Shown here piece by piece: positions 29,254-46,980 of a stretch of DNA of 64,000 nucleotides; the first letter of the stretch is position 1, and each line of letters begins with the position of its first letter. The stretch spans positions 3,136,001 to 3,200,000 of the forward strand of contig OZ242296.1 in the NCBI GenBank assembly GCA_965207735.1. Direction: 5' to 3'. Below the pieces are notes generated by a model. That model saw nothing but the letters and a program-made list of their open reading frames with translations, did no database searches and was not told the origin of the DNA. The stretch is from Candidatus Versatilivorator sp. Its GTDB lineage: Bacteria; Acidobacteriota; Terriglobia; Versatilivoradales; Versatilivoraceae. Position numbers and translations under genes: made by a program.

Positions 29254-29690
29254 CCTTCCCGCCAGGGATCACTGTGGAGGGAGCGACCCCCAACGGGGAG
29301 GGTTGATCGCGCGCCACTGTACGCGCCGGTGAACACTCCCCGGTGCCGCACCAGCGGCAAAAAGAGGGGGGTCGCTCCCTCCACTTCCTCCCCCTCTTGT
29401 GCGGTGCCACGACGCGCCGTGCGAGGCGGGGACGCGCGGCGCCGGTGCCGCACTACGCTTTACCCCAGAGGACTCGGGGAATCCGTGCCAATCCGCTTCC
29501 AATGCGGGTTTCCGGGCACAACCTGGACCGCAACGGCGACGGCTCCGCCCTCTGAGAGAGGAGCGTTGGAGTGGTCAAAAGCGTGAGCCACTTGGTGCGC
29601 CACCTGTGTGAGCCACCCCCCATCTGAAAGGTGGCCACCCATACGACGCCACGTCCTTGACCCCCGGAGGCGGAAATCGTCGATCATTCC
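29254..29690 (+). other. ~430-nt conserved structured non-coding element, copy 1
   Basis: Colinear with the reverse complement of 46559-46980; 18-bp inverted repeat 29274-29291/29367-29384. Confidence 0.8.
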
Positions 29691-30375
29691 TGCTCCGGCC
29701 CAGGCCGCCGTTTCGTCGGCCACCTAGTCGATTCTGTCCACGACGGTGACTGGCATCTTGATGTAGAAATACCAGATGCGTTCGAGAATTGGAGCTACTA
29801 CAAAGCAAGTATTGGTGGACAGGTCAACCGAGTATCAACCCTGAGTCCGGAAGTCCGGGTCCGTCGAGCAGATCCTAAGCCGGTCATGCAATGCCCATAG
29901 CCAATCAGTCCAAGCGATTTTTTGGTCAGCGGCGCGAAGGGACACGTTCCTGCTAACCCGGAGCTCATCAAATTGACATGTTCTCAAGACATGGTTGAGA
30001 CCATTGGAGCAAGGAGGTCAAATGCAAGCGACGTGCAGTAATTTGACCACTGCAGTACGACGGGGAGATAATAAAGGCAGTTGTGATGCAGGGTCCAGCG
30101 GGCATCGAGGGAACCTGCGCCGCGCTCGATCCCGCGCTGTGATTTTTCGTGAAGCGCGGGTGTCGACATTGCGAAGCGGTCTCGCGCCGCAGACTGATCG
30201 GCAGGGCCTGTCGCCGATGCATGGCTTTCGGACGTGCCGGAACGTAGGGAAGACGGTGACGCCGGGTTGTCAGGGGTAGCGGATCGATAGTCGGATCAAT
30301 ACTGGTTGATGGTCCCGTCCCGGCGGCGTAGGTGGATCAAGGTATTGGGACAACGACAACGAGGAAGAGCAACAG

Positions 30376-31374
30376 ATGACGATGTGGATGGTACGAGCCG
30401 AAAGTGACGGCAGCCTTTTCCAGCCTTTCATTGACAAGGGCCTTGTTGCCATTGGCTGGCCCGACATGGGAGATCTTGGCCGGTTTGAGTCGAGGGAGAC
30501 GCTTCTGGCGGAGCTGCGCGACAGGTATCCGAGCGAACGAGCGGGGTGGTACGCGAATGCGGGAGGGATGTTGCACCGCTTCTCTAGGGAGCTGCAGGCG
30601 GACGATGGCGTAGTCAGCTACGACCGCACGAGACGCGTCTACGCGGTCGGCGAGCTGCAGGAAGAGTACAGGTTCGACCCAGGTTTCGATCCCGCCTATC
30701 CGAACGTCTGGCGTGTCGAATGGAAGGCGATGGAGGTTCCACGTGACGCGTTAGCCACCGCGACGAAGAACTCGTTGGGATCGACTCTGACGCTCTTTCA
30801 ACTGCCGGAGAAGGCCGCGGAGGATGTCTGGCGGGCGGCCACAGGGGAGGGGGGGGAGCCTTCGGAAGACGAAGAGAAGGCCGACGAGGAAGAGAAGCTG
30901 CTTCTGGAGGATCTTGAGTCAAGGAGCATCGAATTCATCAAGGATCGGATCGTCGGGCTGGACTGGGAGGAGATGCAGTCGCTGATTGCGGGAGCGCTCG
31001 GCGGGTTAGGCTACAAGGCCCGGATTTCAGCGCGTGGGCCGGACCGAGGAGTGGACATCGTGGCGTCTCGGGACGGCTTCGGTTTCGAGAACCCGAGGAT
31101 CGTGGTGGAGGTCAAGCACAGGACTGGGGAGCAGGTAAGCGCGCCGGGAATCCGGAGCTTCGTGGGTGGCCGTCATATCGACGACAAGTGCCTCTACGTG
31201 AGCACAGGGGGATTCAGCAAGGAAGCGAGATATGAAGCGGACCGGGCAAACGTCCTGGTAACGCTGCTGGATCTCGACGACCTGGCGAAGATGCTTGTTG
31301 AGAACTACGAATCTCTCGACGGCGAGACGCGACGGCTGGTCCCGTTGCGCCGCATCTACTGGCCTGTGGGGTGA
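30376..31374 (+). CDS. Mrr-like (type IV) restriction endonuclease with N-terminal PUA/EVE-like domain
   Basis: MWMVRA...VAIGW N-terminus; GPDRGVDIVAS...IVVEVKH PD-(D/E)xK motif; YVSTGGFS. Confidence 0.85.
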   Translation: MTMWMVRAESDGSLFQPFIDKGLVAIGWPDMGDLGRFESRETLLAELRDRYPSERAGWYANAGGMLHRFSRELQADDGVVSYDRTRRVYAVGELQEEYRFDPGFDPAYPNVWRVEWKAMEVPRDALATATKNSLGSTLTLFQLPEKAAEDVWRAATGEGGEPSEDEEKADEEEKLLLEDLESRSIEFIKDRIVGLDWEEMQSLIAGALGGLGYKARISARGPDRGVDIVASRDGFGFENPRIVVEVKHRTGEQVSAPGIRSFVGGRHIDDKCLYVSTGGFSKEARYEADRANVLVTLLDLDDLAKMLVENYESLDGETRRLVPLRRIYWPVG

Positions 31375-31474
31375 GGGTCAATGGTTGAGGCAACGGGTGC
31401 GGGCGTCGGCAACGGCAAATGCGCCGCGATGAGCCGTCCGTTTCGAGTCGACGCAATGCGCGGGTCAAGCATTT

Positions 31475-31565
31475 GTACCAGTGCTGCATGAGATTCCGGC
31501 GGCGTTCGAAGAGGTCGTTGCGGCGGTAGGCGGCCTCGACGCGGTCGCTGTTGACGTGGGCCCGG
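31475..31565 (-). pseudogene. Tyrosine integrase C-terminal relic
   Basis: Minus-strand reading AHVNSDRVEAAYRRNDLFERRRNLMQHW, homologous to the intact integrase C-terminus. Confidence 0.8.
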
Positions 31566-31589
31566 TCGGGTTCGCAGACCTTGCCACAT

Positions 31590-31722
31590 GTTCGCCGAAG
31601 CCGCCTCGCGGGTGCTGGAACAGGGGGGGGCGGCTGGCGCGGTCGGCGTCACCACCGAGAGTGGATGTCCAGCCTGAGGCGTTTCGCCTTCCCGCGCATC
31701 GGTAAGATGCCGGTCTCCGAGT
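31590..31722 (+). pseudogene. Tyrosine integrase central relic (frameshifted)
   Basis: FAEAASRVLEQ/GWRGRRHHREWMSSLRRFAFPRIGKMPVSE, nearly identical to the protein from 47012-48298. Confidence 0.85.
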
Positions 31723-31813
31723 GGGGGAGACCCCCACACCCCAAAACACCACAGGGGGGACTTCGCCCTCTGAGAGAAAAAGCCTGTGACCATGCACGGC
31801 GAGGTGAAATGAC

Positions 31814-45669: not shown

Positions 45670-45800
45670 GGCCAGCCGCCCGGCCACCGGACCGGTGCGG
45701 CGCATCCGGCCGCGAGCGCGCTGCCGGAACGCCCCGCGTCTACGGGACCGATCGCCTCCTGCGGCAAGAGCGGGCGGCCAGCAATTGCCCCGCCCGTAGT

Positions 45801-45885
45801 GCCGGGAGCGACCCCGCCAAAACCTGCGGTATTGCGGCGCAATGGGCGTTCCCCTGTCACACCCATCGCGCGGGTCGCTCCCGGC
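45801..45885. repeat. 14-bp perfect inverted repeat with the GGGAGCGACCC core
   Basis: gccgggagcgaccc (45801-45814) / gggtcgctcccggc (45872-45885). Confidence 0.8.
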
Positions 45886-46339
45886 GAATGGTTACCGCCG
45901 GAAAGGGTCTCGGCGCCGTACCTGTGACGATGACGACGTTGCGCCTGAAGTGGCCGGTGGACTTCCGGGTCCGCTACTTCCGCTCACTCACCGACTGGGC
46001 GAAGGCTGGGACGCCCGCGGCGCGACAGAGCGTCACCGTAACGTGAAAACGACATCGGGGGTCGGTTCACAAAAAGGCCCGTCCGGGATTCACAATGCAG
46101 TTTCCACCTATCTTCCGCGTTCTCTCGGGTCTGCGACTCCCAGCTGGCGGTGACCTGCCGATGGCGGGAGAGAAGAGATCTCAGGAATCGACGGATGCCG
46201 TCTTCACGCCTGTCTGGACCGCGAAGCGGGGTCCGTTTATGGTTTATTCAGTAAAAGACCGCCGGCCGGTGGAGCCTGTGGCGGACCATTCCCGTCCAAG
46301 GAGGTGTGGGAAACCCTCGCGGCAGCTTGCAGCGGACCG

Positions 46340-46470
46340 ATCCCGCGACCAGTCGTCCATCAGGACACGCCGCCGCTCGAACAGGTCCGAGCGGGCATAG
46401 GCCGCCTCGACCCGGTTCCGGACCACATACGCCTGGGCCGCCTCGATCACCTCCCGGGGATGGTCCGTCT
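46340..46470 (-). pseudogene. Tyrosine integrase C-terminal relic
   Basis: TDHPREVIEAAQAYVVRNRVEAAYARSDLFERRRVLMDDW. Confidence 0.85.
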
Positions 46471-46498
46471 TCACCATGCGGGAATACGGGTCACGGTC

Positions 46499-46528
46499 CT
46501 GTTCCCCCGCAGACCCGGGGATGAATCG
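46499..46528 (+). CRISPR. Solitary degenerate type I-E CRISPR-like repeat (no array, no cas genes)
   Basis: ctgttcccccgcagacccggggatgaatcg resembles the I-E pattern GTGTTCCCCGC...GCGGGGATGAACCG. Confidence 0.5.
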
Positions 46529-46558
46529 GAGCAAGAAACAGGCTCACCCAATGACCCT

Positions 46559-46980
46559 GGAATAATCGACGATTTCCGCCTCTGGGGGTCACGCAGATGC
46601 AGCCGCATGGGTGAAACGGCTGCAACGTAGCGATGTTCACCCAGCCGTTTCATGATTTCCACAACCACAACGCTTTTCTCTCAGAGGACGGAGCCCTCGC
46701 CGTTGTGGTTGAGGACTTTCCCCAAACACCTCATCAGACACGGGATAACAAGGATTTCCCGTGTCGGAAGCGACAAGGCGAAGCGAGGCTGCGCCTCGCG
46801 CGTCCCCCTCCCTCCCGTGGCGGCGGCGCGCCGCACGAGAGGGGAGAAAGTGGAGGGAGCGACCCCCTCCTTTTGACCGCTTGTGCGGCATCGGGGCGGG
46901 TTAGCCGTTTCACTTCACAGTTCACGGTTAACCCGCCCCTTGGGGGGTCGCTCCCTCCACAGTGATCCCTCCGGGAAGGG
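46559..46980 (-). other. ~430-nt conserved structured non-coding element, copy 2, directly downstream of the integrase
   Basis: 18-bp inverted repeat 46850-46867/46943-46960 identical to copy 1; terminal 33 nt 31/33 identical to 29658-29690. Confidence 0.8.

Follow-up and report, generated by a model that had tools for sequence, protein, structure and literature searches.

What is the function of an element of about 430 nucleotides that occurs twice in one part of the genome of a Candidatus Versatilivorator sp. (Acidobacteriota)? The stretch analyzed here (the window) comprises 64,000 nucleotides of contig OZ242296.1 (GenBank assembly GCA_965207735.1, positions 3,136,001 to 3,200,000), and the two copies lie at 29254-29690 (copy 1) and 46559-46980 (copy 2). 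A first-pass annotation had described them as a non-coding element linked to a tyrosine integrase, that is, either a structured RNA or an attC-like single-stranded substrate of that integrase. We propose that the element is probably an origin of transfer (oriT), carried by many integrase islands, for a MOBC-like candidate relaxase that we call ORF330.

This reading is based on the position of the element between ORF330 and a coupling-protein gene inside a transfer module, on the joint absence of ORF330, element and coupling protein from a second transfer system of the same genome, and on the lack of a known relaxase of their own in the three elements checked. It is also based on an inverted repeat combined with concerted sites that track the ORF330 helix, and on integrase insertions at the end of the element, which mirror those of IME_oriT at MOBT oriTs. 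In the proposed mechanism, the winged helix of ORF330 would read five sites on double-stranded DNA, with each helix variant defining a specificity type. The C-terminal domain would cleave, with the nick within the long inverted repeat or next to it, and a resident conjugative element would act in trans to mobilize islands containing the element without ORF330.

Genomic setting of the element and ORF330

Copies 1 and 2 aligned over ~435 nt, and the alignment bore out the earlier claim that they are homologous and inverted relative to each other. A profile search with nhmmer returned 94 matches in the 5.26-Mb source genome (G000), 46 of them full length, and the 41 non-redundant copies shared 61-94% mutual identity. 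The element was found in 13/13 other genomes of the genus and, as weak matches, in 2/17 more distant genomes. On the opposite strand, its flanks encoded one protein ending ...GMIDDFRLWGSRRCRRMGG, a motif found in 44/46 copies. The description as non-coding was therefore incorrect at one end, where the terminal 33 nt and ~50 nt more are the C-terminus of this opposite-strand protein, ORF330. Functional orientation is set here by ORF330 (ORF330, then element) and is opposite to that given first.

ORF330 (~315-330 aa, unannotated) was intact beside 5/46 copies in the source genome and lost at the other 41, both window copies included. A tblastn match to ORF330 overlapped 39/46 copies, mostly covering only the last 25-66 residues. 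ORF330 homologues numbered 1190 at E<=0.001, and the gene was present in 13/151 sampled Acidobacteriota genomes.

Genomic context was counted in the best 80 of 307 loci encoding ORF330 relatives, with the inverted-repeat arm and the terminal motif together taken as the core motif. This motif lay 3' of ORF330 in 73/80 loci, the misses including contig ends and truncations, and the start of the coupling-protein gene followed at <=600 nt in 48 of these 73. Directly before ORF330, virB8 was found in 58/80 loci, three of them containing only the virB8 tail; in the module of the source genome, ORF330 begins at the virB8 stop. The commonest order was virB10, virB5-like, virB6, virB8, ORF330, element, VirD4-type coupling protein and virB11, and the hosts of such modules were conjugative elements of Acidobacteriota and Gemmatimonadota, sponge bacteria. 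A further set of 16 Acidobacteriota loci, most of them far more distantly related, had the repeat core 3' of the gene in 14 cases, 13 of them extending at least 4 bp, compared with 7/2000 random windows.

The integrase had been named as the partner of the element. In the source genome this co-occurrence was reproduced: 38/46 copies had an integrase piece <=2 kb away (5.5% for random positions), and 20/24 full integrases had an element copy <=5 kb away. An integrase match accompanied only 25/80 ORF330 loci. The integrase link is real at the level of the island, whereas ORF330 is the tight partner of the element, together with the coupling-protein gene within conjugative elements. In a second arrangement, the order was integrase, ORF330, element and a small gene, and the ORF330 start retained the virB8 tail; because this tail is kept, the arrangement is likely derived from the conjugative form. 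No tRNA or tmRNA target was found near intact units in 10 loci. An intron or insertion within one gene was ruled out as the origin of the element, the upstream and downstream frames belonging to different genes.

The complete conjugative element of the source genome (~1.84-1.86 Mb, module at 1.850-1.859 Mb) also encodes an integrase, a primase/helicase, a RepB primase and ArdC. No known relaxase was detected among 22 open reading frames (ORFs) scanned over this element or among 65 ORFs over two 40-kb Gemmatimonadota regions, and the TrwC family was absent from the source genome and five other genomes. In the second transfer system of the source genome (2777814-2789811, 2.78 Mb), virB11 and virB4 were interrupted, virB8 was directly beside virB11, and ORF330, the element and the coupling protein were missing together.

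The five short sites and the ORF330 protein

Inside the element, five short sites with fixed spacing changed in concert. They spanned ~300 bp and occurred in two orientations, with one reversed and four forward in near copies and two reversed and three forward at distant loci. All ten site pairs agreed more closely within a copy than in 5000 shuffles (58/61 copies, ungapped; fixed columns), a result inflated by the relatedness of the copies. The pairs of interior positions with the highest mutual information were same-orientation repeats; because the repeats share an orientation, base pairing cannot account for the covariation of the sites. The divergence of the loops noted in the first-pass annotation was seen, but much of it is concerted change of these sites.

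The sites were then compared with ORF330. The consensus of each site was the best-agreeing word within a set window, a choice that favors agreement. From the loci, six were omitted beforehand, followed by near-duplicates and poorly scoring loci, leaving 49; three more were dropped for register slips, leaving 46. Among close pairs of the 46 loci, recognition-helix windows ranked 1-2 of 291 at all three cut-offs, with r values of 0.69, 0.46 and 0.38 for pairs under 0.3, 0.4 and 0.5 distance, respectively. In a tree from which the helix was left out, equal helix/site pairs recurred on separate branches, and one helix/site pair was common to Versatilivorator and Gemmatimonadota. These comparisons suggest that the sites track the ORF330 recognition helix among close relatives.

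ORF330 was modeled with a predicted template modeling score of 0.73, and the model of its C-terminal part had a predicted local distance difference test score of 88. The predicted N-terminal winged helix (residues ~18-110) matched MarR/ArsR-type domains with Z of 6.3-7.7. The top 15 matches of the C-terminal model were mostly proteins of the restriction-endonuclease, PD-(D/E)XK, fold (Z 5.5-6.9, root-mean-square deviation 3-5), led by NucS, SdaI, McrC, Can2, FokI and BspD6I. Foldseek returned no match for ORF330 at E<=0.001, and no MOBC structure was among the fold-search matches. Replic_Relax (PF13814) had no match in ORF330, 38 members or 12 distant homologues; the genome search was also blank, its control being silent too. 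The nearest named Atlas cluster was DUF5697 at 0.87, which is a lead only. From its predicted architecture, ORF330 is a candidate MOBC-like relaxase.

The closest known systems resemble the candidate pair in part. The MOBC relaxases described for pAD1 (TraX) and CloDF13 (MobC), of PF13814, combine an N-terminal winged helix with a restriction-endonuclease-like domain (PMC12857230, PMC6736028), as tentatively predicted here for ORF330, and Replic_Relax is described with the same winged-helix/nuclease architecture (PMC3424549). pAD1 is reported to contain five direct repeats 70-120 bp from nic (PMC12857230), and the repeated sites of our element would likewise be some distance from the region of cleavage. 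The MOBC systems are described as having their own VirD4 coupling protein beside the relaxase (PMC5704250), as the candidate relaxase does here. In contrast to MOBC, ORF330 has neither a PF13814 match nor a recognizable D-E-E motif, the five sites are spread over ~300 bp in two orientations, and the element overlaps the 3' end of ORF330. In the account of pWBG749 and SmpO, short sites define the oriT types; these sites co-evolve with a DNA-binding protein, and the types switch repeatedly on the phylogeny (PMC8136818). The reader there is a separate accessory protein, whereas here the putative relaxase itself would do the reading, through its winged helix.

The end of the element is also a target of integration. 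At four sites of the source genome, the terminal motif has been entered by an integrase clade 62% identical to that of the window, each insertion being flanked by a 9-bp direct repeat. Three of these insertions are 2.7-2.9 kb long, each with an integrase and another element copy, and one of 13 kb has a MOBP match. A 68%-identical integrase inserts likewise in a Gemmatimonadota genome (G033). The recombination role proposed first was therefore correct insofar as a related integrase clade uses a 9-bp core in the end of the element, but not in its attC mechanism. Breakpoints 3' of the terminal motif were considered as a nick signature and rejected, being explained by integrase insertion with the 9-bp repeat. 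Similar behavior is described for Streptococcus IME_oriT, tyrosine-integrase elements that enter a short conserved sequence beside an oriT stem-loop (PMC7563843); one of our insertions likewise carries a relaxase match of its own, of MOBP type. Those elements target the MOBT oriT of Firmicutes, which is upstream of the relaxase gene (PMC7563843), whereas here the motif is downstream of ORF330 in Acidobacteriota and Gemmatimonadota, and three insertions hold an integrase and another element copy.

Islands with the element alone have a counterpart in iOriT islands, described as integrative elements that contain only an oriT and outnumber their helpers (10.64898/2026.01.13.699239). Four motif copies in G033, with neither an ORF330 nor a coupling-protein match within 1.5 kb, resemble them. 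Those islands were described in six nosocomial species, whereas here up to 46 copies occur in one chromosome and the islands are derived from the helper itself, with the ORF330 tail kept.

Weighing the alternatives

Several points weigh against an oriT read by ORF330. In an all-pairs partial correlation over the 49 loci, the helix was not on top, the best window being residues ~163-168 with r of 0.29; the restriction to close pairs was chosen post hoc, and the pairs are not independent. Only 3/16 distant homologues had the terminal motif. ORF330 had no match in Pfam, NCBIfam, PADLOC, PDB sequences or a plasmid collection, and its fold Z-scores are middling. No D-E-E triad is evident, and the C-terminal alignment contained three scattered near-invariant acidic residues. 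In a six-frame search, partial MOBP matches came from an element that had inserted into one Gemmatimonadota region and from the vicinity of two ORF330 copies in G033; such matches are in elements inserted 6-9 kb from ORF330 (G033, G035 and once in the source genome), so that a MOBP enzyme could act in trans. In the two conserved stems, mismatches were G-T on the strand annotated first in 31 cases against 11, in copies that are related and not independent. This excess hints at a single-stranded fold, compatible with RNA or single-stranded DNA roles. Finally, arrays of winged-helix sites also fit replication origins.

An iteron-type replication origin is accordingly one alternative, in which ORF330 would be an initiator that binds the five sites and replicates the excised element. 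The Replic_Relax family is described as including a plasmid replication protein (PMC3424549), which together with the winged helix and the repeated sites speaks for such an origin. We nevertheless regard it as unlikely, as ORF330 starts at the virB8 stop in a transfer operon and is lost along with the coupling protein, and as the elements have separate primase/helicase genes and are otherwise without a relaxase.

The folding of the element bears on the next two alternatives. Both window copies folded below all shuffles, as RNA (z -6.0 and -11.2) and as DNA (z -6.2 and -9.9), and the structural features annotated first were all present: an 18-bp stem identical in both copies, an inner stem with a C-G/A-T change, a ccgc/gcgg hairpin and a terminal match of 31/33. 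The outer stem covaried across 31 sequences from two phyla, with 91% of cells paired, 8/18 pairs doubly changed, an invariant four-pair core and a score above all slid controls. The outer stem and the 5-bp hairpin were alone in keeping fixed Watson-Crick pairs in half of the 61 near copies; other stems recurred by position with variable sequence. RNAalifold on the whole alignment gave only 48-53 pairs, with similar energy on both strands.

A single-strand origin or another folded single-stranded DNA signal, which would prime the transferred strand and may stand alone, overlap or coexist with an oriT, is consistent with the strong DNA fold, the several stems along the element, the strand bias of the mismatches and the RepB-type primase gene downstream in the conjugative element of the source genome. 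It leaves the sites that track the ORF330 helix unexplained, however, no RepB primase was detected in either Gemmatimonadota region, and the scarcity of fixed pairs beyond the outer stem and one hairpin does not favor it. We consider it unlikely.

The structured RNA proposed first, which might act with ORF330 or regulate the coupling-protein gene as its leader, retains the covarying stem, the fold z-scores and the G-T bias on the strand annotated first. The element also overlaps the 3' end of a nuclease-like gene, and TnpB guide RNAs overlap the 3' end of their nuclease gene. As had been claimed, it is not a known RNA family: no Rfam family reached its gathering score, nor E<=5 over either copy except for an S-element match, which was dismissed as chance (25.8 bits against a cut-off of 47). 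The strongest interior covariation, between same-orientation repeats, is left unexplained by an RNA, the compensations of the outer stem were nearly all full Watson-Crick swaps, and no variable guide-like segment was seen at a fixed element end. Assembled RNA contigs, which carry no strand or level, covered the element and its flanks alike and so speak neither for nor against a discrete transcript. An RNA as the function of the element appears improbable. Finally, an attC-like single-stranded substrate of the adjacent integrase, suggested by nearby integrases in the source genome and the hairpin fold, is largely refuted and highly improbable, as this integrase is P4-type with an arm-binding domain and has a different 8-bp core at its own ends with an empty form in the genome, the element's flanks run on into ORF330 and the next gene, and most distant loci have no integrase nearby; identity with an integron attC is not supported either, the adjacent integrase being P4-type rather than IntI and the copies being dispersed with an ORF330 tail on one side, not in cassette arrays.

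The oriT reading carries a wider proposal, which we hold tentatively, at somewhat short of an even chance. ORF330 may found an uncatalogued relaxase family unseen by current MOB profiles, its origin may have a readable code from helix residues to 7-bp sites, and with it sponge symbionts of two phyla may drive a network of dozens of hitch-hiking islands in each chromosome; some islands would parasitize the origin itself by integrating there. Transfer origins, islands carrying only an oriT and integrases that target an oriT have all been described before; the element and the ORF330 family are new to the libraries searched, and no paper on either was found in the open-access literature searched. 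The mechanism of relaxases without an HUH motif is described as an open question (PMC12857230), and conjugative elements without a known relaxase get scored as non-transferable. If ORF330 and the element do form a relaxase/oriT pair, a widespread class of Acidobacteriota and Gemmatimonadota elements would become classifiable, and a means of transfer would be at hand for the many integrase islands of sponge symbionts with defense genes and repeat proteins. Specificity can be tested directly on the naturally occurring series of helix/site pairs.

The window copies and the composite island

Copy 1 (29254-29690, minus strand in the ORF330-based orientation) is a candidate oriT. It is overlapped by an ORF330 3'-end remnant (29607-29741, minus strand; residues 286-330, 53% identity), just upstream of which is an in-frame stop. 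The proximal putative specificity sites (29583-29637, minus strand) are S1 (29630-29637, reversed), S2 (29608-29616) and S3 (29595-29603), and an extra tandem site copy is at 29583-29591. The outer inverted repeat (29274-29384; arms 29274-29291 and 29367-29384) encloses the inner stem, the 5-bp hairpin, S4 (29322-29329) and S5 (29309-29317). The terminal motif (29254-29268, minus strand) is of the TCCCT-N-CGGGAAGG type, into which the 62%-identity integrase clade inserts in other copies. Beyond it is a 5'-deleted remnant (29172-29253, minus strand) of the small (~45-aa) gene that is normally 3' of the element in integrase-ORF330 units. This gene had no Pfam match; by eye only, its product looks ribbon-helix-helix-like.

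Copy 2 (46559-46980, plus strand), identified by alignment and site comparison, is a candidate oriT of another specificity type, the site type differing between the window copies (GTGGC[GT]CAC-like and CCGTTTCA-like). Its ORF330 3'-end remnant is at 46511-46630 (plus strand; 55-59% identity), and its proximal sites (46611-46652, plus strand) are S1 (46611-46619, reversed), S2 (46632-46640) and S3 (46645-46652). The outer inverted repeat (46850-46960; arms 46850-46867 and 46943-46960) encloses S4 (46905-46912) and S5 (46917-46925), and the terminal motif is at 46966-46979 (plus strand). A broken 5' remnant of a VirD4-type coupling-protein gene follows (46984-47146, plus strand; residues 19-58, 50%, E 1e-5), joined tail-to-tail to the 3' end of the P4-type tyrosine integrase gene (47012-48364, minus strand; Arm-DNA-bind_3, Phage_int_M and Phage_integrase domains), whose last ~25 codons are antisense to it.

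At the integrase-side end of the island is an 8-bp core (TGCTGCCG; 48455-48462, minus strand), and the same integrase-clade end with this core occurs at 16 places in the source genome. A second copy of the core (28828-28835, minus strand), at the probable far end, is inside a match to Acido-Lenti-1 (28815-28860), and a matching empty site is at 3044298 of the source genome. The core at both ends and the empty site elsewhere suggest a composite island of 19.6 kb in the window, whose insertion target was a dispersed repeat.

The first-pass annotation had the two copies bracketing the cargo as a pair. Such a pair comprises only 2/46 full-length copies, of different sub-families and flanks, and the direct-repeat core of the island is outside both. 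Copy 1 is followed by the deleted small gene and copy 2 by the broken coupling-protein start, which speaks for different origins. Rather than the ends of one element, the two are probably what is left of separate units that accumulated in a single island.

Additional integrase fragments occur in the island (31591-31721, 35956-36112 and 46265-46471), a sign of repeated accretion and decay. A non-autonomous unit of ~2 kb is present in several copies in the source genome (1087651-1089370, 3237612-3239331, 4406543-4408263 and 5151653-5153372); it consists of the element, the ORF330 tail, a partial second element and an integrase deleted for residues 81-308. Acido-Lenti-1 (RF01687, function unknown) had 121 matches in the source genome and contains the 8-bp core of the window's integrase clade; it behaves as a dispersed repeat used as an integration target.

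A single CRISPR-repeat-like sequence, presumably type I-E-like, is at ~46497-46525 of the window and at 12 other places in the source genome, with cleaner copies at 3860780 and 3862225. In about ten copies it forms the junction between the ORF330 tail and a 3' fragment of an integrase. The cargo beside copy 1 includes an Mrr-domain protein (30376-31374, plus strand) that matches the PADLOC candidate defense system PDC-S02 (E 4e-88). Leucine-rich-repeat proteins are encoded within the island at 37453-42516 (minus strand) and 36963-37421 (plus strand), one of them 1687 aa long with Ig-like and metallopeptidase-like domains. A tandem/dispersed repeat of ~181 bp flanks the island (28396-28784, 49207-49498 and 53262-53469) and is heavily covered in the RNA contigs because it is multi-copy. 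Elsewhere in the window, ARAGORN reported a tRNA-like sequence without an assignable anticodon (4726-4810), and two group II introns were found (5361-6231, minus strand; 51338-53334, plus strand), the second with a reverse-transcriptase ORF.

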